DNA of 46,716 nt from a virus (lineage: Duplodnaviria; Caudoviricetes): positions 1 through 46,716 of the IMG/VR virus record IMGVR_UViG_3300042208_000036, one strand, 5' to 3'. Position numbers and translations under genes: made by a program. Positions within the stretch are counted from its first letter, which is position 1. Each line of letters opens with the position of its first letter. Positions 3,106-46,677 of the stretch are shown one piece after another. Under the pieces are notes generated by a model. That model had not been told where the DNA came from, ran no database searches, and saw only the letters and a list, made by a program, of their open reading frames with translations.

Positions 3106-4048
3106 ATGAATACTAATACAAAATACGAAATCATAGAAATAGACAACAAAGAGGTAACTTTTGATGTGAGCAACTTAGCTACATCAAAAAGTTTATATAT
3201 TAATGCGACTGAAATAGCTAAACAGTTCGATAAAAAACCTACTCACTGGCTAAGACTGAAAGAAGCTAAAGAGTATATGGATGCAGTATGTCAAGTTGCT
3301 AATCTGCAACTTGAAGATTTAACAAAAGTAATACACGGTGGAAATCATAATGGAACATGGATGCATAACAGACTTGCGATAAGATTTATGCAATGGCTCA
3401 ATCCAACCTTTGCAGTAATGTGTGATGAAAAAAATAAAAGAGATGCTAGAGGGTAACCCTCAACCAGTAGTATCAGAACACACCCTCACTCAAATACTAC
3501 ACTCAAACCAAGAAACAACTATGGCAATAGTACAACTTGGTAAAAACATGGAAACGATGTTTAAAACTATGTTAGATACCAACAACAACATGGTAAGACT
3601 AAAAAGTGAAGTAAAAGAGTCACTTGGAAGTATGGACAGAAAATTAGAACAAGTGGAAAACCGTACAAAAATAACAGCTGAAATATCGGTGCGAACCGAT
3701 AAGGTACTAGGAAAAACTTATAATTTCTTACGATACCAACCTATGACAAAAAAAGAGCGAAAAGCGATACAAAATGCAGTAGAAAAAAGAGCCAAAGAGA
3801 TAGCACCTTATCATAATATGACTCTAGAAAATACGATAGCTTCAATATATAGAGCTTTGAATAAGCAATATAATGTTACCACTTATAACGATTTGGAACA
3901 CAAAGATATATTAAGTGCACTTGATTGGATAGAGTTTTGTGAGCTAGGGACTTGGAAGGGAACATCAACTCTTAAAGACCCTCTTGAAGAAGAGTACGGA
4001 GAGAGTGAACAAAGTAGTGCAAGAGATATTTATGGAAATAGGTTTTAA
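3106..4048 (+). pseudogene. KilA-N + C-terminal (ORF6C-like) antirepressor split by a frameshift in an A7 tract (ORFs 3106..3456 and 3422..4048)
   Basis: KilA-N motifs INATEIAK and GTWMH..LAIRFMQWLNP. Removing one A at 3428-3434 fuses the ORFs (CDEKIKEML). The C-terminal half is nearly identical to that of 14405..15355. Confidence 0.7.
3575..3990 (+). repeat. 416-bp inverted repeat, copy A (partner 14505..14920)
   Basis: Colinear, near-identical reverse complement; 5 aa differences in ~138 encoded residues. Confidence 0.9.
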
Positions 4049-14415: not shown

Positions 14416-15355
14416 TCTTTTCTCCTGGACCTTCATCATCAAAATCATATATCCTATTGCCGTCAATATCCCTAGCATTTGTTTTTTGTCTATCAACATA
14501 CACATCTTCAAGAGGGTCTTTAAGAGTTGATGTTCCCTTCCAAGTCCCTAGCTCACAAAACTCTATCCAATCTAAGGCACTCAGTATATCTTTATGTTCC
14601 AAATCGTTATAAGTGGTAACATTATATTGTTTATTCAAAGCTCTATAAATAGAGGCTATAGTATTATCCAAGTTCATATTATGATAAGGTGCTATCTCTT
14701 TGGCTCTTTTTTCTACTGCATTTTGTATCGCTTTTCTCTCTTTTTTTGTCATAGGTTGGTATCGTAAGAAATTATAAGTTTTTCCAAGAACCTTATCGGT
14801 TCGCACCGATATTTCAGCTGTTATTTTTGTACGGTTTTCCACTTGCTCTAGTTTTTTATCCATATTGCCTAATGACTCTTTTACTTCGCTTTTAAGTCGT
14901 ACTATGTTGTTGTTGGTATCTATGGTTGTTTTTAAAAGACTCTCCATGTTTTTATTGATACTTACTATCGCATCAAAACTTTTCATCATAAAAGCTTGAA
15001 TATCTTGATTTACTGGTTGTATGTTGCCTTGTAATCTTTCTTTCATCATAAAGAAAGCTTTTACAAGATTTTTCTTAAATTCAACAACATTTCCCTTGTT
15101 TGATAGTAATGTCATTAAGAAAGTTGATTGTTGTTCATTTAGTTCTGCAACGGTAATATTTTGAGTTCCACCATTTGTTTCAAAGGGTGCTGTTTTAAAA
15201 AGCACCCTTCCAAATTCACTTATATTATCTTCATGTTTTTTTATTAGACTGATAATATCCTTGTGTCTTCTCTCTGTATGTTCCGATATTGTCATTGTTG
15301 ATACTACTGGTGTATCATCTATAACATCAATTTTAATTAGTTGGTTAGTTTGCAT
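14405..15355 (-). CDS. Rha-family regulator/antirepressor with ORF6C-like C-terminal domain
   Basis: VVSTMTISEHTERRHKDI...LNEQQSTFLMT...FKKNLVKAF. Confidence 0.85.
   Translation of the reverse strand: MQTNQLIKIDVIDDTPVVSTMTISEHTERRHKDIISLIKKHEDNISEFGRVLFKTAPFETNGGTQNITVAELNEQQSTFLMTLLSNKGNVVEFKKNLVKAFFMMKERLQGNIQPVNQDIQAFMMKSFDAIVSINKNMESLLKTTIDTNNNIVRLKSEVKESLGNMDKKLEQVENRTKITAEISVRTDKVLGKTYNFLRYQPMTKKERKAIQNAVEKRAKEIAPYHNMNLDNTIASIYRALNKQYNVTTYNDLEHKDILSALDWIEFCELGTWKGTSTLKDPLEDVYVDRQKTNARDIDGNRIYDFDDEGPGEKNEN
14505..14920 (-). repeat. 416-bp inverted repeat, copy B (partner 3575..3990)
   Basis: See copy A. Confidence 0.9.
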
Positions 15356-21236: not shown

Positions 21237-22067
21237 TTATTCTCCTGTTTTAAAATGTTTGATAGCCACATTAATAGCTTCACTTTTGTTTAAGTGTCCA
21301 TCTGTATAAAATATACCTTGGTAAGATTTTTTATAACCTCTATATACCTCTACACTCCAATTTGTCATTTTTTGCCAACTCAGAGAAACATTTAGATCTC
21401 TATTTAAGCAGTATTCCTCAAGCTCTGCAAATATATCAGGAGTTTCTAAATTGTTTAATGTATTTTGAATAAGTTCTGGAGTCTCAATGTTTAAATATCT
21501 CTTTGTAATAATATTGCTTAACTCTTTTGTAGCTCTGATATCATCTAATGCATTATGTGCTTCAAGTTCTATATTAAAGTACTCGCATGTGATTTCAAGT
21601 TTATCACTTGGTGTGTCTATGAAGTCCATGTATTTTAAAAACTTTACAAGTGCAAAAACATCAAGCTCTTTATAATTGAAATAAGAACCATAAAACTTAT
21701 GATTATTGTCTTTAAACCATTCTTGAATAAATCCTGTATCAAAAGCTGTGTTATAGCCATTTACTATAAACTTATCCTCTTTATCAAATTTATCAATGTA
21801 CTTGTCTAGTATCTCAATAAATGTGTTAAAACAATCAACGCTATCTGCGTAATCATCTGATGTGATTTCATCAAGTGTTTTGTTGCTTATGTCTAGTGCT
21901 TTTTGGTCTACTTCTACTTCTTTATTGTATGTAAGTGGATTAATTTTAAATAATCCACTCTCAAGCTCTTCTCCATCAACTTCTATAATATAAGCTAACT
22001 CTCTCATGCCGTGTTTAACTTTGTCTAGTCCTGTTGTCTCCGTGTCTATATAAATTACTTTTTTCAT
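21237..22067 (-). CDS. DEDDh 3'-5' exonuclease (DnaQ-like)
   Basis: IDTETTGL, GYNTAFD, AHNALDD motifs. Confidence 0.9.
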   Translation of the reverse strand: MKKVIYIDTETTGLDKVKHGMRELAYIIEVDGEELESGLFKINPLTYNKEVEVDQKALDISNKTLDEITSDDYADSVDCFNTFIEILDKYIDKFDKEDKFIVNGYNTAFDTGFIQEWFKDNNHKFYGSYFNYKELDVFALVKFLKYMDFIDTPSDKLEITCEYFNIELEAHNALDDIRATKELSNIITKRYLNIETPELIQNTLNNLETPDIFAELEEYCLNRDLNVSLSWQKMTNWSVEVYRGYKKSYQGIFYTDGHLNKSEAINVAIKHFKTGE

Positions 22068-22579
22068 TTTGAATCCTCTTTAAAGTCTGGGTTATATTTA
22101 GTTTCAATAAATTCAACTGGCATAAAAATATTGTCAACTATTGGATTTTCTAGAAATTTATCTTTTACTGTAAATCTAAAGCCTTTACCTAATGTTTCAA
22201 ATAGACCATAACTCTTCCAGTTGCATATTTTTCCATCCTTATCTTTGTAACCGCTATTACACTCATAAGGACTTGTTTGTGTTTGTCCACACGCTGGGCA
22301 AATAAATTTTTTAGATTTTACTGCTTCCATTAATTCTTCTTGTGTTTCAAAAACTTTTACTTTGTCATCTAGCTTAGGGAAGTTGGCTTCTTGATAATAG
22401 TTTGCTGACCAGTAGTTTCTTTTGTCTTCAAAAGCTTGTAATATATCTCTTTTATCTATTTCTAAAAACTTGCTATAGCTTTCAACCATTTCTTTAATCC
22501 ACTCAAGCTTTTTATTAAACCGTTCATCATCATTTAGATTTACTCTTATTTGTTCTATTAATTCTTCGTATGTTTTCAT
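22064..22579 (-). CDS. Conserved phage protein with Cys cluster
   Basis: RNYWSANYYQEANFP, CPACG..PYEC..CNWKSYGLF; AAGGA RBS before MKTYEE. Confidence 0.75.
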   Translation of the reverse strand: MKTYEELIEQIRVNLNDDERFNKKLEWIKEMVESYSKFLEIDKRDILQAFEDKRNYWSANYYQEANFPKLDDKVKVFETQEELMEAVKSKKFICPACGQTQTSPYECNSGYKDKDGKICNWKSYGLFETLGKGFRFTVKDKFLENPIVDNIFMPVEFIETKYNPDFKEDSK

Positions 22580-22608
22580 ATTATTCCTTTCTATCTGTTC
22601 GCTTTCGC

Positions 22609-23634
22609 TCACTTCTCAAGTTTCAAGCTGTCACAAGCGAAACGAGAACCAATGTGCCAATACGAATACCAAACGTAATTGTTCCAAGCCGAGCAACGTG
22701 ACCCAGCATGCGCCCCACTGTCACGATTGCCACCAAGTATGAATCTGTCATCATCTTCACTTTCTTCGCCATAAGATGTGCTGCTCCATACCCACTGTAC
22801 CCCTGCAGCTTGTTCAATTCCATATTTAGATACAAAGTCAGGAATATGTTTTGTAGTGCCATCATCTAGGTCTCTTGCACTATCATTTTCTTTTACTCCA
22901 TCCATAGCTACTTGAAATTCATCTTTTGTTAAAAGTCTTTTTCTATGTGCTTTTGCTATCGCATCTATGACTGCACCTTTAAAATCTTCATAACCGTCTG
23001 GTATTTTTCTACCGTTATTGTTGCTTCCTGCTGCAATATGTTTACCAGCTTTTGATGTTCCATATTTTTTGTGTTCACTGTTAGTTAAATAAATATCTAC
23101 CCATATCTTTAGTTTTGGAATATAAACCATTCCTGATGGATCACATATTGGTCTATGTTTTTTATCCCAAATGCTATAGGCATTGATACCTCTTATTTTC
23201 TTGACTTGTTTTTGCGTTATGTTATTTCTAGCTTCAAAGTCTTCTGGTATAAGTCCATAGTGAAATCCACCGATAACTGAATATTCATCAAATTCTTCTG
23301 TGTCTGCTTGAGCAATAGAATATTTGTCATCTGCATCTTTTAAAACGCAATAATCTGTTCCAGCTTTTTTAAATTCATTTGTTTTTGGAAGATTGTTTAA
23401 CGATAGCCTAGTTCCATCAACTTCTATTGTGTGTGAATTTACTTTTTTGATAATTGCTTTTGATTTAAACGGTTTGTCTTCTTGAAAAAGACTTGATAAT
23501 TCAATTGTATTTACGCTCATTGGAATATTTTGCTGCTGTTCTATTCCTGTAATAAGTTTTACAATATCATTTGCATCAAAATCAGTTTTAACTGATACCT
23601 CTGTACCTTTTGTTTTTATATTGATTTTTGTCAT
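22609..23634 (-). CDS. Second (remote) DGR target: Mtd-like/C-type-lectin-fold protein
   Basis: Paralog of 30072..31181 (AGTDY, GGFHYGLIPE, IRGINAYS, GIEQAAGVQ); C-terminal VR. Confidence 0.9.
   Translation of the reverse strand: MTKINIKTKGTEVSVKTDFDANDIVKLITGIEQQQNIPMSVNTIELSSLFQEDKPFKSKAIIKKVNSHTIEVDGTRLSLNNLPKTNEFKKAGTDYCVLKDADDKYSIAQADTEEFDEYSVIGGFHYGLIPEDFEARNNITQKQVKKIRGINAYSIWDKKHRPICDPSGMVYIPKLKIWVDIYLTNSEHKKYGTSKAGKHIAAGSNNNGRKIPDGYEDFKGAVIDAIAKAHRKRLLTKDEFQVAMDGVKENDSARDLDDGTTKHIPDFVSKYGIEQAAGVQWVWSSTSYGEESEDDDRFILGGNRDSGAHAGSRCSAWNNYVWYSYWHIGSRFACDSLKLEK
22631..22740 (-). repeat. DGR variable repeat VR2
   Basis: 110 bp against TR with 8 mismatches, all at TR adenines. Confidence 0.95.
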
Positions 23635-23820
23635 CTTGTTTCTCCTTTTATTAGCTGACTTGAAGTCAACTTATAAGAGTACCTATTCAGTTTTTTTACA
23701 TTGAAACAAGATGTAAAGATTGTACGGAGGAAGAATTTATTCTCTGAATAGATACTCATATAAATAGACTTTAAAAGTTTCGTGAACGAAAAAAGCCGAG
23801 CTTCTGCTGACCGCATTTGG

Positions 23821-24118
23821 TCGGCAAAAACTCGGCAATTATTTTCCCTTTTTTGTCCTAGTTGTAGTGAAATTGGAGTGAAATCAAGTGTAAGTGCTTC
23901 TATGTTTTTAATATGTGTAAAAGTCCCGCTATTGCATTGCTTTTCGTGTTTTAGCTGTTTATAAGTTTGTTTTGATAGAATTTCGCCAATGAATGTCGCT
24001 TCGGACTCATAAGCCGGAGGTCGGGGGTTCAAGTCCCCCCCTTGACACCACTTCTTATCGGCTTCATAGCAATTTTCAAAAAAATCAAAAAACTTACTCG
24101 GCAAAAACTCGGCAATTA
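23821..24118. repeat. Integrase arm-type sites flanking the attP core
   Basis: TCGGCAAAAACTCGGCAATTA at 23821-23841 and 24098-24118; inverted AAAAGCCGAG at 23791. Confidence 0.75.
24001..24050 (+). other. attP core: 3' half of tRNA-Met(CAT)
   Basis: CTCATAA anticodon loop, GGGGG-TTCAAGT-CCCCC T arm, CTTGACACCA end. The 5' half is absent; the integrase is adjacent. Confidence 0.85.
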
Positions 24119-25327
24119 ATAACATGACTCTTGCTTCTCCTTTTCATTTACAATATAGAAAAAGTTGTTAGCCATTTCAATATCTTTTTTACTACTTTCG
24201 TGAGTAAAATATACATCATTTAAAACTCTTGAGCTTTGTGTCCATCCTCCAACAGATTTTAACCATGCTTCATCAGCTCCGTTGTTTTTCATGATAGTTA
24301 CATAAGTATGTCTTGATGTATATAAATCTTTGTCTTCGATTTTTGTTTTGTTTAGCAGTGGCTTCCAATAATATTTATTAACTGTTTTACTATCACTAAA
24401 GCAAGTATTATATTTGCTAACAAATACCCATTTATCTTGAGTTCTCTCTTCAAAATGTTTCATAAGCATATCTCTTGTTGTATGGTCCAACGGTATAAGT
24501 CTTGTGTGATTTTTAGTTTTATTAGTATTGTTGTTTTCTACAATTTGGTAGTCATTGTTTACAAAGTCTTCAATTGTAGAATTTCCAGACTTTTCTGTCA
24601 CTCTACCTTTTGTTATAGACCTTTTTAAATCAATAAAGCCATTGTTGAAGTCTATATCATCCCACATCAATCCTATAGCTTCTCCAGTTCTTACTCCAGT
24701 ACTAAAGATTAAATATAGGAATACTTTGAACCATCCCTCGCTCTCTTTGATAAGTGTAGTAACTTCTCCAGCTGTGTAAGGAACTCTTTTCTTTGTTGTA
24801 ACAGTTATTGCATCTGCTAGTGCTACATAATTTTTGTGAATAATATCATCGGCTACTGCTTTGTTCATTATTAGACTTAAGGTGTCTTTGCATTTTTTGG
24901 TTGTGCTTGTTGACCTTTTCTCAAGCATGAAGTTTTGCCACATTTCTATTTCTGTTGTTTTTATGTCTTCGATATAAAACAACTTTTTAGCTTCAAAATA
25001 AGGGAGTATATGATTTTTTAAATATCCCTCTTTTTCCTTTTGTGTATTTGTGTTTCGACCTCTTGCTGTAGCTTCAATAACTTTTAGACCATAAGATTCA
25101 AGATTTGTTTTTTCCTGTTTCGTATTTTCTTTATCAATAAGTTTTAAAAGAACGTCTCTGTGATTCTTTTTGATCCATGCAATATTTAATTTAGTAGCTT
25201 CTTTCCCTGTTGATTTTCTATAAAACTTTCCATCAACAGTTCCAAGAACATAAATTATATTACCGTCTTCAAGTTCTCCAGTAGTTTTGTTTCTCTTTTT
25301 TGGGATATCCCAACCTTTACCTCGCAT
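24116..25327 (-). CDS. int: Tyrosine integrase
   Basis: TGVRTGE (R), YTSRHT, GGW, VY catalytic motifs; beside attP. Confidence 0.95.
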   Translation of the reverse strand: MRGKGWDIPKKRNKTTGELEDGNIIYVLGTVDGKFYRKSTGKEATKLNIAWIKKNHRDVLLKLIDKENTKQEKTNLESYGLKVIEATARGRNTNTQKEKEGYLKNHILPYFEAKKLFYIEDIKTTEIEMWQNFMLEKRSTSTTKKCKDTLSLIMNKAVADDIIHKNYVALADAITVTTKKRVPYTAGEVTTLIKESEGWFKVFLYLIFSTGVRTGEAIGLMWDDIDFNNGFIDLKRSITKGRVTEKSGNSTIEDFVNNDYQIVENNNTNKTKNHTRLIPLDHTTRDMLMKHFEERTQDKWVFVSKYNTCFSDSKTVNKYYWKPLLNKTKIEDKDLYTSRHTYVTIMKNNGADEAWLKSVGGWTQSSRVLNDVYFTHESSKKDIEMANNFFYIVNEKEKQESCY

Positions 25328-25622
25328 AATGTCTCCTTATACGAAGCACCACATCTTGTTTCACGTATATTTTACCGCCTTTTTTCTTGTAGTCTTCTTC
25401 TGGTTCAAAGTTAGCTATTACATATTTTCTTAAAGTGTTTGCAGCTTTTCCAGTTAAATTTGATACTTCGGATAATGATAATTCATCTGGAATAAGAGAT
25501 TTAAGCTCTTGATGTTCAGCTTTAATCTCTCTAATCTCTGATAGTATGGTAAGAAGAAGTTCTTTTTCTTCGGTTATCATTTTTTGTTTCTCCGTACATT
25601 TATTACAATGTATTTTAAACAC
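25317..25622 (-). CDS. Excisionase-like HTH protein
   Basis: LSLSEVSNLTGKAANTLRKY; overlaps the int start; true start probably 25580. Confidence 0.6.
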   Translation of the reverse strand: MFKIHCNKCTEKQKMITEEKELLLTILSEIREIKAEHQELKSLIPDELSLSEVSNLTGKAANTLRKYVIANFEPEEDYKKKGGKIYVKQDVVLRIRRHYAR

Positions 25623-25656
25623 AATAACCTTAAAAGTTTGTTAATCCGTTTTAGTT

Positions 25657-26004
25657 TTAATTAATATTTGTGGTTTGTTTTGTGGTATCAGTTTGTGTTC
25701 CTGTTCCATCTTCGGTATCACTTACCGTACTGTCTGTATATGAATGTGTATGGTTTGTATAATTTTCATTTGCGATTGTTCCATCTGAGTTAAATGTAAT
25801 CGAAAATAAATCAGCTATTGACTGTATCTTTTCTTGAATAATTTGAAGAGATTGATTTATATTGTTTATACTTTGTGTATTTGCACTAACGTCTTCATTT
25901 AGACTACCTATTGTTGTGTTTTGTAGTTCTTCAATAAGTTTATCAAGTCTTTTAGCTCTCTTGTAAGCTAGTAGTCCTAATTTATCTTTTTTTTCATCTA
26001 GCAT
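25657..26004 (-). CDS. Hypothetical coiled-coil protein
   Basis: Overlaps the spanin stop. Confidence 0.6.
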   Translation of the reverse strand: MLDEKKDKLGLLAYKRAKRLDKLIEELQNTTIGSLNEDVSANTQSINNINQSLQIIQEKIQSIADLFSITFNSDGTIANENYTNHTHSYTDSTVSDTEDGTGTQTDTTKQTTNIN

Positions 26005-26272
26005 TTATAAATTCCTTTATGCTATATATTTTTTCTCTACATTGTTCAGCTGACTTATAAAGCCTTACCATATAATCAGCAGCTTCACTTTGCATAGTAA
26101 TATTTGGAACTTTTGGAATTTCACTGCATTCTAAAAGTTCATTTGGTACTTGCTGTTTTTCTATCTTGATTTGTGTTATTACTTTTGGTGTTACCACCTT
26201 GGAGTTGTTGCAACCTGTTAAAAGTATTAACAAGAACAGGAGCTGCAATCCCATCATCTTTTTCTTTAACAT
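25994..26272 (-). CDS. o-spanin (Rz1-like lipoprotein)
   Basis: Lipobox LLTGC, VPNELLEC; overlaps the i-spanin gene. Confidence 0.75.
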   Translation of the reverse strand: MLKKKMMGLQLLFLLILLTGCNNSKVVTPKVITQIKIEKQQVPNELLECSEIPKVPNITMQSEAADYMVRLYKSAEQCREKIYSIKEFINAR

Positions 26273-26609
26273 ACCTAATCTCCTCTATAATTTTTGAGTA
26301 TTCTATTGCTCTTGATAATTCTTTTTTATGTTGAGCTCTCATGATTTCAAATGCTTTATTTGTTTCTTGTTTAAATTTACTAAATGCTTTTTCATTTTCT
26401 TTATTTACCTGAATTGCATCTTCTAGTTTGCTGTTTAACACTGCATTTATTTCAGTTAGATTTAATATCTCTTTTTGTTGGTTTAATATTTTGTTTTTTT
26501 GATAATAAATATACCCACCTGTTGCAACAATTACTAATGCTATACCAATATATAACAATGTGTTTGATTTGTTAAAAATGAAGCTTTTTATTGCAGTAAG
26601 CCATACCAT
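26139..26609 (-). CDS. i-spanin (Rz-like)
   Basis: N-terminal TM plus coiled coil, after the endolysin. Confidence 0.75.
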   Translation of the reverse strand: MVWLTAIKSFIFNKSNTLLYIGIALVIVATGGYIYYQKNKILNQQKEILNLTEINAVLNSKLEDAIQVNKENEKAFSKFKQETNKAFEIMRAQHKKELSRAIEYSKIIEEIRYVKEKDDGIAAPVLVNTFNRLQQLQGGNTKSNNTNQDRKTASTK

Positions 26610-27151
26610 CTTTTAATCCTTTCAACATAAGTAATTGTCTCTTTACTATGATGTCCTGTAATATCTTTTAGGCATGGTTTTATATCATCCCATAATTTTG
26701 CATTGCCGCATTTCTTTTGTGCTTTTAAGATGCTTCCCATACCTGCATTGTAACTTGCTTGAGCTAACTTATTTTTTTCTATAACTGGTCTATTCCAACT
26801 CCATCCATTTCTAAGCTTTCTCATGTAGTAGGCACCAGCATAAATTGCATAGCTTGGTATAAAGGCATTTGAATAAACTGGATAGTCTAATTCTTTGCTT
26901 ATTTGTTCCCATGTTTTTGGCATAAACTGTGCTAGTCCCATGGCACCAACTGGAGATACTGCATCACTTTTTAATCTGCTCTCTTGATAAAGTTGTGCTT
27001 TCCAATACTTCCACTCTTCAAAATCTGCCCAGTAGAGCTTTACGCTCTTTTGAATCTGGGCATCATATTTTGAACTAAAAGAAACTGCTGACAATGATTG
27101 CGATAGCAATAAGCCTACCAGCAAAATAAATACCGAGTGCTTTTGAATCAT
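26588..27151 (-). CDS. Endolysin, SLT lytic transglycosylase with signal peptide
   Basis: QESR, SPVGAMGLAQFMP, ASYNAG, ETITYV; likely start MIQKH. Confidence 0.9.
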   Translation of the reverse strand: MIQKHSVFILLVGLLLSQSLSAVSFSSKYDAQIQKSVKLYWADFEEWKYWKAQLYQESRLKSDAVSPVGAMGLAQFMPKTWEQISKELDYPVYSNAFIPSYAIYAGAYYMRKLRNGWSWNRPVIEKNKLAQASYNAGMGSILKAQKKCGNAKLWDDIKPCLKDITGHHSKETITYVERIKRWYGLLQ

Positions 27152-27290
27152 GTCTAACCTTTTCAAATTCAGTTTTAAAATCAAGTCCTATCATTTTGTC
27201 TGATAGTCTTGCTGTCATCCAAGTAAACCCAAGGGTAACTAATGCGTAAAACAGTTTTATTAAAAAATCCATTAGTAAAAACTTGTCCAT
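27075..27290 (-). CDS. Putative holin
   Basis: 71 aa, two TM segments, upstream of the endolysin. Confidence 0.6.
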   Translation of the reverse strand: MDKFLLMDFLIKLFYALVTLGFTWMTARLSDKMIGLDFKTEFEKVRHDSKALGIYFAGRLIAIAIIVSSFF

Positions 27291-27299
27291 ATTTTTCCT

Positions 27300-27707
27300 T
27301 TATTTATATAGCCACCCTATGACGGCAGCTAAAATCATATTAAATAGTGTAAAGTATCCCATTGATTTGTACATAAACTTTTTAATATCTTCAACATCAA
27401 AAAGAATACCTCCACGCCCATCTTTTCCATAAACAGTTCTGTTTAAAGTAGTAACTTCATTTCTAAGCTCTTTTGTTTCAGCAATTTGTGTGTCTAGCTT
27501 ATCAATTCTTTTGTGAACTCTAGTGAAGCTCTCTCTTAAATTTGCATCCATGTTCTCAATTTTTTCATTGATAACTGCAATGCTTTTAAGAGATTCTGTT
27601 AAATTGTGAAGCTCTGTGACTACTCTATTTAAGTTTTCCGATAGAGCTTTAAACTCATAATCGTGCCTAATCACTTTCTCCCTTATTTCTTCATCTGATA
27701 ATGGCAC
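27300..27707 (-). CDS. Coiled-coil protein with C-terminal TM (lysis region)
   Basis: FTRVHKRIDKLD coil and hydrophobic tail. Confidence 0.65.
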   Translation of the reverse strand: MPLSDEEIREKVIRHDYEFKALSENLNRVVTELHNLTESLKSIAVINEKIENMDANLRESFTRVHKRIDKLDTQIAETKELRNEVTTLNRTVYGKDGRGGILFDVEDIKKFMYKSMGYFTLFNMILAAVIGWLYK

Positions 27708-27708
27708 C

Positions 27709-27957
27709 TTATTCTCCTATACTCTTCATGCAGTGTTCACTTTCAAGCATTCTTAAAAATTTGCATAACAATTTTTCGAATCTATTTGCTTTTCCAGCTT
27801 TTATTCTTCTTCCAACATGAGAGCTAATAGTTTCATCTTGGCTACCATTCCAGAGAAGAACATTTCCCATTTGGTCCAGCACTAAAAGAAATCTTAAAAG
27901 TCTAGATCTCTTCTGCATGTCTGTTTCAAATTTTAAAATAAGCTCTTCTCTATCCAT
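27709..27957 (-). CDS. Conserved phage hypothetical protein
   Basis: LDQMGNVL..G..DETISS..G...HC motif. Confidence 0.7.
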   Translation of the reverse strand: MDREELILKFETDMQKRSRLLRFLLVLDQMGNVLLWNGSQDETISSHVGRRIKAGKANRFEKLLCKFLRMLESEHCMKSIGE

Positions 27958-27967
27958 CCCTCAATCC

Positions 27968-28435
27968 TTACCCAGCAAAGTTAAAAGCTGGTAATTCTGC
28001 TAAAAACTCATCTTTAGCTGGTAATGTTCTAGTTCCTGCAAATACTGAAGCTTGAATCAATCTTGCTGTTTCCCAAACTGTAACATTCCAGTTCCAAACT
28101 GCTAAACAAAAACCTTGATGTGCATAATCAGTGTTATCTTTATAGTTTGCACAGCTATGAACATCTCTAAACTGTAAACCATTTGCTTTGTTATAAGCAT
28201 CAACTTCTTTTTGGATGTATTCTTCAACATATCCAGTAAACTCTTTTACAGTTGCTTCTTTTGTAGCAGCTGCTAACTCTTCATCTCTTTTAGCTATGGC
28301 AGTTTCAACTTCGTTTTTTTCAACTTCTGTTTTTGTATCAAGATAAACATGTTTCTCTCCACTCATTACAACTATTCTTTTTGTTTGTTCTGACAAAATG
28401 TCGACCAATGGTCTTGCGTTAATTTGCTCTTGCAT
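27968..28435 (-). CDS. Tail fibre assembly-like protein
   Basis: IQKEVD...SCANY...WNVTVW...FLAELP pattern; overlaps the RT stop. Confidence 0.6.
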   Translation of the reverse strand: MQEQINARPLVDILSEQTKRIVVMSGEKHVYLDTKTEVEKNEVETAIAKRDEELAAATKEATVKEFTGYVEEYIQKEVDAYNKANGLQFRDVHSCANYKDNTDYAHQGFCLAVWNWNVTVWETARLIQASVFAGTRTLPAKDEFLAELPAFNFAG

Positions 28436-29417
28436 ATTCTAGTTCTCCTCTTAGTAAATTTAGTAAATTAAAACTATCTGCTCTTACTACATGCCCAAGC
28501 CATGAAGAAAGAAATATTCTCAATTTCTCAAATAGCTTTAATCTAATAAATCTTTTTATATGTCTTCTTGCTCTTGTAACAGAGTCTTTTCTTATTAGTT
28601 TAAAAGTTGATTTAATTCTCATTCCCAAGAAGTTAATAAACTGAACATCTGCTTTTTGAATAAACCACTTGCTGAATTTCAACTTCATATATAAATTTAT
28701 AAACCTATTTAGAACTTTTTGAAGTCTTGTTAATTCTTCTTTGCTGTGGCTAAGAATTACAGTGTCATCCATATATCTAAAATAGTGTTTTATTCTAAGT
28801 TTCGTTTTTATAAAAGCATCAAAAATATGTCCATAAATATTTGCGAATAACTGGCTTAATAGATTTCCAATCATTACACCTTTTTCACAGATAAATTTAA
28901 AAATAAGCCTTAGTGTTTTTCTATCTGTAATTTTCTTTTGAATTTTTTGTTTTAAAAGATTTGAATAAATGCTATGGAAGTACTTGCTGAAATCCATTTT
29001 TAAAAAAAATACTTCTCCAGCTTTTTTCATTTTTCTCAATGTAGATTGAACTTTATTGATACCTTTGTGAGTGCCTTTGTTTTTTCTACACGCATAAGAA
29101 GTACTATAAAAAGTTTTTTCAAATATTGGTTCTATCACATTGTTTATTGCATGTTGTACAACTCTATCCCTAAATGGTAATGAGTTAATTATTCTCTTTT
29201 TTGGCTCATAAACTAAAAAGCTATAATACTCTCCAATTTTATATGTCTCATTTATCATCTTTTGTTGTAAAATATATAGATTTGCTTCAAGGTTTTCTTT
29301 GAATTTTAAATGACCACTGCTATATCTATTTCCACCTTTCAATGCTTTTTTATATGCATCTCTTAGGTTGTCAATATCAACAATTTTGTCAAAAAGGTTT
29401 CTATATTTTTTACCCAA
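28419..29417 (-). CDS. DGR reverse transcriptase
   Basis: FRDRVVQHA, KMDFSKYF, IGNLLSQLFAN (DGR-type SQ), YFRYMDD. Confidence 0.97.
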   Translation of the reverse strand: MGKKYRNLFDKIVDIDNLRDAYKKALKGGNRYSSGHLKFKENLEANLYILQQKMINETYKIGEYYSFLVYEPKKRIINSLPFRDRVVQHAINNVIEPIFEKTFYSTSYACRKNKGTHKGINKVQSTLRKMKKAGEVFFLKMDFSKYFHSIYSNLLKQKIQKKITDRKTLRLIFKFICEKGVMIGNLLSQLFANIYGHIFDAFIKTKLRIKHYFRYMDDTVILSHSKEELTRLQKVLNRFINLYMKLKFSKWFIQKADVQFINFLGMRIKSTFKLIRKDSVTRARRHIKRFIRLKLFEKLRIFLSSWLGHVVRADSFNLLNLLRGELEYARAN

Positions 29418-29578
29418 TTTCTTTTCCTTTTTTTTATGTGCTGTCTTCTAGTTTCGATGTTTCACTACTCTTAGTTTTACAGACCCATTACTTTGTTTGC
29501 TTACGCAGGACAAATAAGCTGACTATTTTTAGTCTCACTACTTAACCCGTAAGTTAAATAAGTGCTATGAATAAATAC

Positions 29579-29697
29579 TCACAAGCGAAACGAGAACCAA
29601 TGTTCCAATTCGAATTCCAAACGTAATTGTTCCAATTCGAGCAACGTGACCCAGCATTCGCCCCATTGTCACGATTGCCACCAAGTTTCACGGTTGT
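29579..29697 (-). repeat. DGR template repeat (TR)
   Basis: Lies between avd and RT; 29 adenines and 9 AAY codons; matches VR1 and VR2 except at adenines. Confidence 0.97.
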
Positions 29698-30047
29698 CTT
29701 ACTTGCCCTTTATTTTTTATCATTGTTCCTACTATTTTTCCAACTTCCGCAAGAAGAATAGAGGCTACTTGATGTCTTCTTGGACTTATAAGCTTTCGTT
29801 TTTCATCTGCTAAAAATCGCAAGTGATAACGAAGCAACACCAAGGAAGCATCTGCTTCATATAATTTACTGATATGATTTGATTTGGCTGCTTTATAAAA
29901 AAGGTCCACTTGTTTAAACACAAGCTTAATGGTCTCTTCTTTTACAATTCCATGTTTTCTAGGAATTTGTTGTAAAACTGGATAAATGTAATTTACAAAT
30001 TCATTGTATTTTTCAATTACCACCAAATCGCTATCATATCTTTTCAT
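29688..30047 (-). CDS. avd: DGR accessory variability determinant
   Basis: 119-aa basic helical protein, EVGKIVG motif, between target and TR. Confidence 0.9.
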   Translation of the reverse strand: MKRYDSDLVVIEKYNEFVNYIYPVLQQIPRKHGIVKEETIKLVFKQVDLFYKAAKSNHISKLYEADASLVLLRYHLRFLADEKRKLISPRRHQVASILLAEVGKIVGTMIKNKGQVRQP

Positions 30048-30071
30048 ATAAACTCCGTTCGCTTCCGCTCA

Positions 30072-31181
30072 CTACACAAGCTTCAAGTGGTCACAAGCGA
30101 AACGAGAACCAACGTTCCAATTCGAATACCAAACGTAACTGCCCCAATTCGAGCAACGTGACCCAGCATTCGCCCCATTGCCACGATCGCCACCAAGTCT
30201 CACGGCTGTTGGAGAGCTTGATGTTGCATATATTTGCCCTCTAGTGTCTGTGTAGTCAACCCATACGAATGTTGTTGTTCCATATCCATTCATAAGGTCT
30301 TTACCCCAAACATATTGAACTCCAGCTGCTTGTTCTATACCAAATTTCGAAGTTAAGTGAGGATAGTGTTCTACTTTTCCAGCTACTGTTTCATAACCAT
30401 CTGTGCTTGAAGATTTACCCTCTGTTACTCCATATGCAATTGTAGGGAATTCATCGTAACCAATCATCTTTTTGCCATGTGAAGCTGCTATCTCACAAAG
30501 TTGAAACCAAGTAAGCTTTCCATATGTCAAAGTTCCATCTCCACCATACATCAGAGGAATTTTTGGAATAAGTCTTCCGTATGATGCAGCACCTGCAGCT
30601 ATAAAAGCTCCAGCTTTTGAAGTTCCATTTGCGATGTGTTCACTGTTTAATAAATAGATGTCATACCATTTACCATTAATATAAACCATACCCTCTGGAT
30701 TACAATTTGGTCTAAATTTTAAATCCCACATAGAGTAAGCATTGATACCTCTGATTTTTACCATGTCAGATTCAGTTTTGTTTCCTGTTGGTGCTTCTGC
30801 TTCTGGAATAAGTCCATAATGGAAACCACCAACAAGCCTATCGGCAGTTATTGTTTTATCTGCACTTATATAAAAAGTACTATCTGCTTTAGCATATACA
30901 TAGTAATCAGTACCTGCGGTTTTTGCACCAGTATCTAAATTTGTATTTAAATCTAAAGTTACATTAGCTGCTACTTCTACTGCTGTTGAACCTACAAGTA
31001 CTTGAGTTCCTGCTGGAATAACAATGCTTGATGGACCAGCTTTTAAAAATAAAGCTTTGTCGTAATCTGGCTTTTTGAAATTTACTGTTAATGCAATCAG
31101 ATTGTTCGCATTTTCTATCTCTTGAAATGTTGTAGTACCGCCACTGTGAATGATACCACTGTCAGTTATTTGAATTCCCAT
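30072..31181 (-). CDS. DGR target 1: major-tropism-determinant-like tail adhesin
   Basis: Follows the tail fibre; CLec-like C-terminus GG...AGSRC...GSRFACD carrying the VR. Confidence 0.9.
   Translation of the reverse strand: MGIQITDSGIIHSGGTTTFQEIENANNLIALTVNFKKPDYDKALFLKAGPSSIVIPAGTQVLVGSTAVEVAANVTLDLNTNLDTGAKTAGTDYYVYAKADSTFYISADKTITADRLVGGFHYGLIPEAEAPTGNKTESDMVKIRGINAYSMWDLKFRPNCNPEGMVYINGKWYDIYLLNSEHIANGTSKAGAFIAAGAASYGRLIPKIPLMYGGDGTLTYGKLTWFQLCEIAASHGKKMIGYDEFPTIAYGVTEGKSSSTDGYETVAGKVEHYPHLTSKFGIEQAAGVQYVWGKDLMNGYGTTTFVWVDYTDTRGQIYATSSSPTAVRLGGDRGNGANAGSRCSNWGSYVWYSNWNVGSRFACDHLKLV
30091..30209 (-). repeat. DGR variable repeat VR1
   Basis: 119 bp against TR with 9 mismatches, all at TR adenines. 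Confidence 0.97.
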
Positions 31182-31191
31182 TTTGTTCTCC

Positions 31192-32862
31192 TTAATCGAT
31201 TAATTTAACTATCGCACCATCATTTACAGTTATGCTGTTAAATGTAACTGGATTGATGAATGCTGCATTTGTATTTGCTGGAATTACTACATCCCCAAGT
31301 GTGTTTGAGTGCATGAAGTCTCCCGTGTCCATGTTTGATAGAAGCTCATTTATTTTTTGTGATGAATAAGTTTTATCAGCTGCTGGAGTAGTGTCGTTGA
31401 TTTTTGCATTTATTGTATTATTAACTTTTTGTGATGACCACACATTTGTTGTATTTGTAACTGTGTCAATAACTAAAGAGCTGTTTGTCATATCAGCACC
31501 GTTATAAACTTGAATAGTATGTGTTGATGTATCACTAAAAGTTATTGTATATGTATCAGTTGCCCCTGACTGTCCAGCTTGTCCACTTGCATCTGTTGTT
31601 GAAGTAAAAGAGATGTCTGTTATAGAAACTCCTGTATCTCCTTTTTCTCCTTTTTCTCCTTGCCCAAATGGTGACCCGCCATCCCAATCTCCAGCTGTAT
31701 CACTTCTTTTAAAATATATTGTAGATGGTTGTACATCTGTTGCAAGGTATGAAAAATCTTTGCCTTGTGCATCATATAAAGAACGATTTGCAAAAGTTCC
31801 AACTGCATCTGGATTAAATGCTTCTCCTCTTTCTCCTTTGAGACCTTGTGGCATATAAAGTGTGTAATTACCACTGTTTTTATCATATGATAAACTTGCA
31901 CTTTCATTTGATGCAATCATTACTACTTTTGGATTAATAGCAATAAGTTCATCTCTTATTTGAATTACTTGAGTTGTTTTTTCTGGCACTTGCAACACTG
32001 TAGACATATTATTTGATACATTTTGCACAGATGCTATATCATTAGCTACAGTGTCTATATTTGTTTTATTGTTTGCAACACTGTCAATATTTGTTTTATT
32101 TAGATTTACACCCTCTATATTGTCAAGGTTTGCTTCTACATCTATGATCTTTTGGATATGATCGTATAGAGACTGTAAGTTTTGTCTAGTATTATAAAGA
32201 TACTGGATCTCATCCTCTTTGTCTGCAAGAGCGATGATTTTGTCTATCCTTTGACCAAGTGCAATAACATCTCCAACACGATTTGCTAAAGTTTGAAGTG
32301 AGCTTGTAGTCTTAGCCCAGTAGTATGTAGGAGTGGCTTCTTTGAAGCTTCCAAGATATGCAGTCAATTCCACTCTATCTATATTTGAAGCACTACCGTC
32401 TGCATCTCTAAATCTAATAAGCTGCGGAGTAGTTCTTATTGCATCTTCTACAGTTAGCTCCGTATTGATAACATTTGCAGCATATAGTGTATGATTTGCA
32501 ATATAGTTTTTGATATCTGCATGAGATGTTAGCTCTAGTGTAACCTCTGTCACACCATCCTCAAGCAATGTCACAAAATCTATATCAAGATTTGTACCAT
32601 CATTCAAAACCAACCTTGCACCGCTATAGCTTACATGCTCTGTATCGCTATTGTTATTGAGTGCTAGATCAATGTCTATCTTTCTGTTACCTAGATAGTT
32701 GCTTTTTTTGAGGTCTTCTGTGATTAGTGAAATATCTATCTCACTTAATTCTTCCAGCCTTTGAATAGATTCCTCATCAAATAAATCTTTAGCTTCTTTA
32801 ATAATCTCAAGGTTTGCTACAAGTTGATTGACATTTGCTATAAAGCTTTCACTTACTTCCAT
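31192..32862 (-). CDS. Tail fibre protein
   Basis: NIDSVANN repeats, collagen-like GEKGEKGDTG, WSSQK/YSSQKI repeats. Confidence 0.8.
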   Translation of the reverse strand: MEVSESFIANVNQLVANLEIIKEAKDLFDEESIQRLEELSEIDISLITEDLKKSNYLGNRKIDIDLALNNNSDTEHVSYSGARLVLNDGTNLDIDFVTLLEDGVTEVTLELTSHADIKNYIANHTLYAANVINTELTVEDAIRTTPQLIRFRDADGSASNIDRVELTAYLGSFKEATPTYYWAKTTSSLQTLANRVGDVIALGQRIDKIIALADKEDEIQYLYNTRQNLQSLYDHIQKIIDVEANLDNIEGVNLNKTNIDSVANNKTNIDTVANDIASVQNVSNNMSTVLQVPEKTTQVIQIRDELIAINPKVVMIASNESASLSYDKNSGNYTLYMPQGLKGERGEAFNPDAVGTFANRSLYDAQGKDFSYLATDVQPSTIYFKRSDTAGDWDGGSPFGQGEKGEKGDTGVSITDISFTSTTDASGQAGQSGATDTYTITFSDTSTHTIQVYNGADMTNSSLVIDTVTNTTNVWSSQKVNNTINAKINDTTPAADKTYSSQKINELLSNMDTGDFMHSNTLGDVVIPANTNAAFINPVTFNSITVNDGAIVKLID

Positions 32863-33401: not shown

Positions 33402-33442
33402 ATACTATTTAAAATATCTGTTTTAAACTAGGTGGGTATTTT
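33402..33442 (-). promoter_or_regulatory. Putative late promoter, copy 2
   Basis: AAAATACCCACCTAGTTT-17nt-TAGTAT. Confidence 0.7.
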
Positions 33443-33485
33443 TTATAATTTTTTTGATATATTATTTAAAAATTTTAGGATAACA

Positions 33486-34034
33486 ATGAAGTATATATTT
33501 TTATTATTGGTTATATTTTTTTTCATTGGCTGTAGCACTAAAGAGGTTGTTAAAAAGGAGCCTTTTAAATTGCCTTATTTTAATAAAGATAAAGCTAATT
33601 TATATATTTTAAATAAACAAGATTTATTTACTTTTTCAAGAGAAAGTGTGATTATTAACTTGGATTGCAATAACTCATCTTATGGTGCCATTGTAAACAC
33701 AATCCAATTTGCTTATTTTCCTTTAGAGCATGGTTCTTGTTCTCTTTTTGTAAATAACTATGATAATTTTAAAGCTGCTTTTGGTAGAAGAGATGGACAA
33801 AAATTAAATTTAAACCTTGAAGCTGGTAAGATTTATTTTGTTGATATTGATTTAAGTATGGATGTTAAGTCTTGGTTTAAATTTGTTTTTACTCCAGTTT
33901 GGATGGATATGGAAGATCCTTTAATTGAATCTTCTATTAAAAATGACTCATTTGAAAAGCTGGAAGATATAATCAACTTTAAACCTATGCTTGGTATAAA
34001 AAGATTATACCCTCCTGAGTCATCATATTTTTAG
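33486..34034 (+). CDS. Moron lipoprotein (DUF2846-like)
   Basis: MKYIFLLLVIFFFIGC lipobox, AGGA RBS, LEAGKIYFV; opposite strand to its neighbours. Confidence 0.75.
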   Translation: MKYIFLLLVIFFFIGCSTKEVVKKEPFKLPYFNKDKANLYILNKQDLFTFSRESVIINLDCNNSSYGAIVNTIQFAYFPLEHGSCSLFVNNYDNFKAAFGRRDGQKLNLNLEAGKIYFVDIDLSMDVKSWFKFVFTPVWMDMEDPLIESSIKNDSFEKLEDIINFKPMLGIKRLYPPESSYF

Positions 34035-45663: not shown

Positions 45664-46677
45664 TTAAATCATTTCTCCTATGTAGTTTTGTAAGTATTCT
45701 CTTACCTCATCTTCATCAAATTCTTTGATGACCTCGAAGCTAAATTGTGCTTCATCTAAAACCGATAATTCAAACTCATTAAAAAACTCCGCCCCCTCGT
45801 TTGTTTTTAATTTTCTATAGTCAAATTTCTCAAAATCAACATCTAGTTTAAGAGTTGCATTGATTTTATTTATCAAAATTGAGAGAACATTTTTCGCCCC
45901 CTCATTTGTTTTTAATTTTTGAGTTTTTTCTTTTATTTTTTTCTCATAATCAAGAAAAACTTTTGAATTTAAAAAAGTTGCAGGATGTTCAAAAATTTCA
46001 TTAAGGCTTTCTTTGTGTTCAATATGCATTTGGGTGGCTTGTAATAAAAATGACTTATGATATTTTGTAAGTTTGTTGAATGCCTTTAGAGCTCTGTCTT
46101 TTTTTTCTTTTCTTGGATATATCTTATACCAATCCTCAAAAGAGAAAGTGTCGTCCAAATTTTTTTGGACATGTCCTTGGACATTATTTTTATTATTGTT
46201 TATATATAATAATGTAGAAAAGTCAATTTGACTTTTTGAACTGTCAATTTGACTTTTTGTGTCCTCATTTTTTATATTAGAAAAGTCAATTTGACTTTTT
46301 GAACTGTCAATTTGACTTTTTGTGTCCTCATTTTTTATATTAGAAAAGTCAATTTGACTTTTTGAACTGTCAATTTGACTTTTTGTGTCCTCACTATTTT
46401 GTTCAAAAGTTGCTATGTATTTTAATCGGAGTTGTCTGTCTAATTTTGTTCCAATATTTTCAATTATATTTTTTGCATATAATCTTTTAATTGTTGCTTG
46501 GACTGCATTTGTAGTTTTGCCTACATATTTTGCAATTATTTCATTACTTGCATAACAATATCCCTCTTTTGTAGAAAGTCCAGATATTAATCCACATAAT
46601 ATTTTTTCACTATCTGTTAACTCTTGAGATAATAAAATATACGATGGTATAATAGAATAATAATTTAAATCATTCAT
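45664..46677 (-). CDS. Replication initiator protein
   Basis: GYCYASN wHTH, FEDWYKIYPRK...HPATFLN, internal iteron repeats. Confidence 0.85.
   Translation of the reverse strand: MNDLNYYSIIPSYILLSQELTDSEKILCGLISGLSTKEGYCYASNEIIAKYVGKTTNAVQATIKRLYAKNIIENIGTKLDRQLRLKYIATFEQNSEDTKSQIDSSKSQIDFSNIKNEDTKSQIDSSKSQIDFSNIKNEDTKSQIDSSKSQIDFSTLLYINNNKNNVQGHVQKNLDDTFSFEDWYKIYPRKEKKDRALKAFNKLTKYHKSFLLQATQMHIEHKESLNEIFEHPATFLNSKVFLDYEKKIKEKTQKLKTNEGAKNVLSILINKINATLKLDVDFEKFDYRKLKTNEGAEFFNEFELSVLDEAQFSFEVIKEFDEDEVREYLQNYIGEMI
46215..46393. repeat. 63-bp tandem repeat (~2.8 copies), probable origin iterons
   Basis: Units start at 46215, 46278 and 46341; six GTCAATTTGAC palindromes. Confidence 0.85.

Follow-up and report, generated by a model that had tools for sequence, protein, structure and literature searches.

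Background

In phage diversity-generating retroelements (DGRs) a template repeat (TR) and a reverse transcriptase (RT) serve to rewrite a variable repeat (VR) in a target gene. In the phage BPP-1 element (mtd-avd-TR-brt) this target is Mtd, whose beta-prism contacts the fibre and promotes trimers (PMC10743442, PMC6328139). According to Wu et al. (2018, PMC5758913), 13% of DGRs have two targets, and the DGR of a phage frequently has one target that is not adjacent; a large DGR survey did not look for remote targets (PMC8144416). Here we analyze a stretch of DNA of 46,716 nucleotides (henceforth the window), which is the entire virus record IMGVR_UViG_3300042208_000036 (Duplodnaviria; Caudoviricetes) and represents a whole temperate, podovirus-like phage of 46.7 kb. 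It carries a DGR with a single TR and two target genes, T1 within the DGR cassette and T2 elsewhere in the genome.

An initial annotation, made from the letters of the window, had already proposed that one template diversifies both genes. This is real, but its weight was overrated, given that the layout is common (PMC5758913), and the annotation missed that the targets appear to be ancient paralogs lying in different genome modules, with a putative phage attachment site (attP) between them and a hairpin common to both. Two-target phage DGRs as such are already known; what appears to be new is an old clade of T2 proteins in the early module and a strand-asymmetric hairpin. The system also offers a clean case for study, with a probable host in a culturable genus that carries a prophage, targets that are paralogs lying in separate modules, and relatives that have T1 or T2 alone, the pair of them, or the pair in the absence of the RT. 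Our literature search found nothing on DGRs of Campylobacterota phages, nor on the T2 clade, nor on hairpins of DGRs with G-A oppositions; most subscription papers, figures and other supplements lay outside this search, so that absence from print is not shown by it. One searched supplement of PMC5758913 held no Campylobacterota genus name.

One template and two target genes

The cassette lies on the minus strand, as do both VRs, and has the order target-avd-TR-RT given in the initial annotation. T1 (30072..31181) is a 369-aa Mtd homolog (E 4e-48 against Mtd in the PDB; PF21916), and its last codons contain VR1 (30091..30209). Behind it stands the accessory gene avd (29688..30047; 119 aa), which matches PF22296 and NF033474 above cut-off (97 bits versus 80 for the latter) and whose last codons overlap the start of the TR (29579..29697), a repeat with 29 adenines and 9 AAY codons. 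Between the TR and the RT gene sits the DGR spacer RNA (29440..29564), recovered at full length by the Rfam model RF03022, Phage_DGR (80.7 bits). The RT (28419..29417; 332 aa) is intact, retains the YMDD and IGNLLSQ motifs, and shows a dN/dS of 0.10 against its counterpart in L001, a 93% identical relative; its best PDB match is the BPP-1 RT (chain 8ub7, E 2.5e-73), with group II intron RTs reaching E about 1e-13. These components support classification of the cassette as a BPP-1-type DGR, here with a second target gene. This gene, T2 (22609..23634, minus strand), codes for a shortened Mtd paralog of 341 aa that is 42% identical to T1, is matched to Mtd by sequence, and carries VR2 (22631..22740) in its last codons.

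Read on the minus strand, VR1 differs from the TR at 9 of 119 positions and VR2 from its matching part (29579-29688) at 8 of 110, with all 17 mismatches at TR adenines (chance about 1e-6 and 4e-6, respectively). The coordinates and counts first reported are thereby upheld, with the proviso that the VR2 mismatch at 29687 is at the edge of the homology, so that 7 of 108 is the safer VR2 count. Only two positions (29687 and 29616) are changed in both VRs, as against 2.5 expected under independence, in agreement with the earlier proposal that they were mutagenised largely independently. The initial diversity estimate from the nine AAY codons is arithmetically right (15^9 = 3.8e10 combinations) but too low, as all adenine codons together allow VR1 about 8e14 and VR2 about 2e12 protein variants. 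Homology to the TR ceases at 29579, whereas the two VRs carry on beyond this point with similar sequence, which is the pattern of an element where mutagenic homing is initiated (IMH) at the VRs and IMH* at the TR; the VRs, taken together with about 35 nt of following sequence, are 87% alike. When both strands of the genome were scanned with tolerance for adenine changes, no third VR came up; a degenerate TR pattern had 0 matches in metagenome contigs, a set that may lack near-identical records, and promoter scans ahead of T2 and in the cassette returned sites no more numerous than in shuffles.

Natural variation of both VRs

Metagenome contigs allow the two VRs to be followed in natural populations. 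In four runs VR1 shows at least 13 polymorphic positions, every one of those listed a TR adenine, among 40 of 376 difference rows over 10.5 kb. For VR2, a contig from one of four further runs (X11-1) covers all 421 nt around the repeat and differs from the window at 11 positions, 11/11 of them TR adenines, with unchanged flanks, while another run has the window's own VR2 allele without change. Altogether 20 VR2 positions are listed as variable, 18 of which are TR adenines and two of which reflect the TR variant of a second strain; the TR in these contigs is either the window's sequence or one strain variant. An invariant VR2 had been named at the outset as the finding that would speak against the proposal, and VR2 proves to vary at TR adenines across samples. 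At the protein level, P0122 is identical to T2 outside the VR and differs at 8 TR-adenine codons, and adenine changes could produce 142 of 144 residue differences from the translated TR in T1 (15 sequences) and 46 of 48 in T2 (7 sequences). Against these data it has to be held that the contigs come from 8 runs of 2025 wastewater/bioreactor metagenomes, possibly one campaign, and that the within-sample variation of VR2 is seen in short contigs that are possibly VR1-derived.

Dependence of both VRs on one template is also apparent from comparisons between genomes. In L001 the TR has a two-base change not involving adenine, which both its VRs carry too, and which can be read as a natural tag of the shared template. 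We compared 10 two-target systems, three of them joined across contigs of one metagenome-assembled genome, and found VR2 to be closest to its own genome's TR in 10/10, with 0-6 non-adenine mismatches versus 2-30 to other TRs. Over these systems the mismatches number 96 at adenines versus 5 others for VR1, and 90 versus 9 for VR2; the mutated positions common to both VRs are 44, compared with 38 expected, and 23 have the same base. L001 alone has 9 such positions, 7 with the same base. Both VRs are drawn from one TR and vary almost only at TR adenines, largely independently. Together with an RT closest to BPP-1 Brt, Avd, the spacer RNA and relatives in Malaciobacter mytili, this makes it nearly certain in our view that a real and active two-target DGR is present, as had been claimed for a Campylobacterota phage.

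Several further observations concern the repeats and their genes. In L056 (10707-10821) VR2 tracks the TR over 97 nt and retains at its 3' end an older sequence with 5 differences that are not at adenines, which would mark a natural limit of sequence transfer. Both VRs are on the same strand in all same-contig systems, which is compatible with a replication bias (PMC12875486); we do not use this as evidence because most genes are on that strand and BPP-1 homing is orientation-independent (PMC3240598). The middle part of T2 (22912-23378) has a second allele, with about 50 differences, that co-occurs in the same samples.

A hairpin with tandem G-A oppositions behind each VR

Immediately behind VR1 (30057..30072) and VR2 (22597..22612), on the minus strand in each case, lie the sequences GT-GA-GC[GGAA]GC-GA-AC and GT-GA-GC[GAAA]GC-GA-AC. 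The common motif GT-GA-GC[GRAA]GC-GA-AC has these two copies in the genome and none after the TR. Its loop fits the GRNA consensus and has the same register as the perfect BPP-1 hairpin (PMC3240598), and its stem is made of 4 Watson-Crick pairs and two G-A oppositions, which are T-C oppositions on the other strand; a BPP-1-style perfect, GC-rich inverted repeat of 7-10 bp, formable on both strands, is not found. In a hand-made list of 55 VR ends, whose rows are related rather than independent and which excludes near-duplicates as well as some T2 ends whose TR was not located, 32 ends show the tandem G-A form, a perfect stem in the same register is seen at 10, and 13 have neither. Shuffled sequences yield a mean of 0.06 tandem G-A hairpins and the other strand 0/55. 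The four flanking stem pairs are 96% paired in an alignment of 21 ends picked by hand, with both-side changes at all four, a sign of covariation. Among the 55 ends, L043 (1829-1883) is the one exception in having a perfect hairpin after the VR with its GAAA loop on the antisense strand.

Sheared tandem G-A pairs are stable in DNA. The hairpin is accordingly predicted to be stable on the sense strand only, which would point to recognition of single-stranded sense DNA. Weighing against this, ViennaRNA assigns the window hairpins -0.8 kcal/mol, no better than shuffles. If the G-A pairs do form, a good hairpin exists on the sense strand only, and a model in which a single strand is recognized (PMC12875486) fits better than a cruciform. 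The tandem G-A hairpin would therefore be a natural probe of the question of cruciform (PMC3240598) versus exposed single strand (PMC12875486), and, if it is confined to the sense strand, a cruciform would be unnecessary for DGR recognition. The myDGR rule of a perfect 7-10 bp stem (PMC6602519) would miss the hairpin at 32/55 of the VR ends examined.

T2 proteins form a clade of shortened Mtd paralogs

T1 has the full Mtd domain set and is encoded directly behind a tail-fibre-like gene (31192..32862, minus strand; 556 aa) with PHROG appendage and tail fibre matches. This gene is fused to the T1 homologs in L012 and L056, and T1-type genes follow or fuse with a tail-fibre gene; T1 is thus likely to be a tail-tip receptor binder. 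An AlphaFold model of T1 was set aside for its mean pLDDT of 64.

The predicted fold of T2 also matches Mtd (Foldseek E 5e-19, TM 0.63), though PF21916 stays below cut-off on it, and both targets have the C-terminal VR in a protein of the Mtd-like C-type-lectin fold. Their N-terminal parts differ: alignment to Mtd starts at residue 36 for T1 and near residue 100 for T2. Compared with T1, T2-type proteins have three deletions common to the clade, and many are just 274-287 aa long and start inside the beta-sandwich; the N-terminal anchor region and full beta-sandwich of a virion Mtd are lacking in T2. It is free of any hydrophobic signal or membrane stretch and has 29% charged residues versus 17% in T1, and its N-terminal 45 residues, a segment absent from many T2 proteins, gave no usable Atlas match. 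In a tree, 14 T2-type proteins form one branch (SH-aLRT 100) with a long stem, apart from 15 T1-type proteins (98). The T2 body outside the VR is under purifying selection (dN/dS 0.10-0.28 in five pairs), and GenBank phages returned distant T2 relatives only, at most 32% identical. By these sequence comparisons T2 belongs to an old, separately evolving clade of shortened Mtd paralogs and is not a recent duplicate.

T2 heads a run of exonuclease, MazG and primase genes. We drew 16 T2-type loci from scans of viral records and genomes; in 15 of them T2 has genes for replication, recombination or regulation as neighbours, and one is uninformative. These neighbours include DnaB, an O-like initiator, CI/CII, integrase, ParA/B, SSB, exonuclease, primase and Lar-like genes; most are of replication or recombination, and some loci have Lar-like, MazG-like or methyltransferase genes. 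None of the 16 has T2 behind or fused to a tail-fibre gene, the placement of a virion Mtd. The early-type placement recurs in Campylobacterota phages of podo-, myo- and sipho-type: the podovirus-like genome studied here, two complete myoviruses (G003 and G004) and the lambda-like prophage G006, whose tail carries a fibre other than Mtd and in which no DGR target besides T2 was found (the record is rated 34% complete).

Some loci are of interest in their own right. The gene behind T2 in the window (22064-22612, minus strand) is absent in a co-occurring strain, where contigs join 22060 to 22573 in 4/4 runs, and L001 likewise lacks a counterpart, T2 running straight into the exonuclease. The complete myovirus G004 (L011, L136, L216) keeps T1, avd, T2 and both hairpins, with an HNH gene in place of the TR and RT, and represents a frozen two-target DGR. 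A distant phage, L119 (7779-8609 and 13103-13828), has a second short Mtd-like target (277 aa) near its integrase; 11/11 of the mismatches fall at adenines, and the same layout may here have arisen independently.

What might T2 do?

By analogy with BPP-1, the TR-spacer RNA would be copied by the RT and Avd, adenines being the sites of error, and either VR would then be replaced by the cDNA; what identifies a VR as a recipient would be the 3' end and the GRNA hairpin that it carries itself. With a mark local to each VR, the distance between T2 and the cassette (6.8 kb in the circle versus about 39.7 kb in the prophage) would be immaterial, and one DGR would rewrite the adenine positions of two paralogous C-type-lectin genes. 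The absent anchor, the early-type neighbours whatever the tail type, and the purifying selection outside the VR suggest that T2 is functional, with a job separate from adsorption. It would likely be made early and likely bind a variable host partner in the cell rather than on the virion. That it is a non-virion protein we consider rather likely; that it is an intracellular variable binder we would put at a probability of roughly 0.6. Its most likely job would be counter-defence or host take-over. The most far-reaching version, in which T2 is an intracellular phage 'antibody', brought by the DGR to about 1e12 variants of which some progeny would carry one able to bind and disarm the host defence or replication protein encountered, and in which single-stranded sense DNA is recognized without a cruciform, we offer as tentative speculation, doubtful as a whole. 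If T2 does act in the cytoplasm, DGRs would diversify counter-defence or take-over binders, and not tails alone.

A number of points weigh against an intracellular role. The position of a gene is no proof that its product is missing from the virion, and no RNA run was found to contain the stretch. At the early/late border, between DnaB and the gene preceding the terminase, is where T2 stands in L002, L012 and L056; in L094 it follows a minor-tail-protein match, a possible late-module case; in L006 and L096 it is inside the cassette; and most short metagenome T2 loci are uninformative on context. The tree is a quick search over 54 rows, with VRs removed and midpoint rooting, in which 6 T2 rows were flagged for composition. 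PADLOC gave no match for T2, and 4 T1 records, three possibly incomplete, are without T2. Some of these points would be natural if T2 were another receptor binder on the virion, or joined T1 in its trimers as a co-subunit, so that the DGR would double the adsorption repertoire. T2 has after all retained the Mtd fold and bears the PHROG label 'tail protein', the border position and the tail-gene neighbour just mentioned would suit such a protein, and a pair of Mtd-like targets in Lagaffe_CP has been read as two receptor binders (PMC11792537). Nevertheless, the anchor region is missing, T2 is never behind or fused to a fibre gene, the early placement is the same in podo-, myo- and sipho-type phages, and T2 is the sole target where the tail has no Mtd, all of which makes a place on the virion rather unlikely.

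T2 might also be made in the cytoplasm and take effect outside the cell once it has lysed, as a soluble decoy covering the receptors on debris or getting in the way of competing phages. A TR common to T2 and a likely receptor binder would sample the same surface-binding sequence space, and T2 has no signal peptide; yet VRs that mutate largely independently would seldom let T2 match T1's receptor, and G006 carries T2 without T1, so we hold a decoy to be improbable. Still less credible is T2 as a passenger, an old duplicate that kept its recipient signal and whose VR2 varies without benefit or stores VR sequence. The T1 phages without T2, the retention of T1, avd and T2 in G004 after loss of the TR and RT, and the same-base changes shared by the L001 VRs are what such a passenger would leave, but selection acts on the whole T2 body, frames are intact and hairpins conserved in distant phages, and T2 is the cassette's own target in L006 and L096. 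That VR2 is no DGR target at all and owes its sequence to ordinary gene conversion from VR1 can practically be dismissed: the likeness of the two VRs and their 3' flanks is as such a conversion would have it, but VR2 has adenine changes absent from VR1 as well as TR adenines that VR1 has lost, changes common to both are near chance, VR2 has its own hairpin, and in L056 its 3' end is unlike both TR and VR1 while its body follows the TR. Intracellular binding of a variable host partner is the reading we prefer for T2.

Genome, host and integration site

The gene content is that of a temperate phage, with CI repressor, integrase, P22-like portal, SU10-type adaptor, capsid, terminase, replication initiator, DnaB, SSB and primase. 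Joining the genome ends places a Cro-like open reading frame (ORF) directly ahead of the initiator gene, which is compatible with a circular genome. A 48-kb Malaciobacter mytili contig supplies cluster members of T1, T2, integrase and terminase, and for this reason the host is likely to be a species of the Arcobacteraceae (Arcobacter family).

Between T2 and the tyrosine integrase gene (24116..25327, minus strand; PF00589), the 3' half of a tRNA-Met(CAT) gene (24003..24050, plus strand) agrees with Campylobacterota tRNA-Met at 47/48 nt and is likely to be the attP core. After integration there, T2 would lie at one end of the prophage and the cassette close to its opposite end. The accessions of the M. 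mytili contig run T2, terminase, T1, integrase, an order inferred from their numbering, which agrees with an attP between T2 and the cassette. A search with the tRNA att pattern matched 60 tRNA loci of Helicobacter and one other Campylobacterota, none of them Arcobacteraceae, so that attB in the host itself was not seen. Two small ORFs (22623-22865 and 23631-24125) are likely spurious, having no family match and overlapping VR2 or attP.

Elsewhere in the window, a 524-nt inverted repeat (3524-4047 and 14448-14971; 87% alike) corresponds to the C-terminal regions of two ORF6C antirepressors and flanks the portal gene and genes for proteins of 1590 aa and 463 aa; the 10.4-kb segment could invert. 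Close to an adenine run, a KilA-N ORF overlaps an ORF6C ORF that is in another frame (3106-4048, plus strand), an arrangement resembling a split antirepressor. Iteron-like 21/63-nt repeats within the replication initiator gene (46215-46403) are a likely origin. The tail region has one AT-rich gene on the opposite strand (33432-34034, plus strand), moron-like and with a weak DUF2846 match.

Comparison with known systems

Among gut phages, the nd4/nd12 tentaclins (PMC10743442), Toutatisvirus (10.1101/2024.10.15.618418) and Lagaffe_CP (PMC11792537) likewise have one TR for two diversified proteins, in Lagaffe_CP two Mtd homologs like T1 and T2. There too the targets can outlast the DGR, as in G004, but both are read as likely structural or receptor-binding, and the tentaclins have Ig domains and an N-terminal VR. 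The DGRs of Wu et al. (2018, PMC5758913) resemble the present one in having a second target <50 kb away in the same prophage; the section of that paper on non-adjacent targets gives these no clade or function.

Quimbyvirus (Benler et al. 2021, PMC8008677) also has two targets, a structural one and a distant C-lectin one proposed to be non-structural and engaged in phage-host conflict. It is a Bacteroidota phage with a frameshifted RT, and its second target is on the opposite strand in a methyltransferase island, whereas T2 is a same-strand Mtd paralog of what appears to be an old clade found across three virion types. With BPP-1 the element shares the order of its genes, the RT family, Avd and the spacer RNA, TR/VR mismatches at adenines only, the C-terminal VR in an Mtd-fold protein and a GRNA hairpin after the VR in the same register. 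It departs from BPP-1, which has one target and a perfect 8-bp GC stem, in its two targets, in a stem of six positions with tandem G-A oppositions, and in an adenine-free 21-nt tract that takes the place of the GC-only tract.

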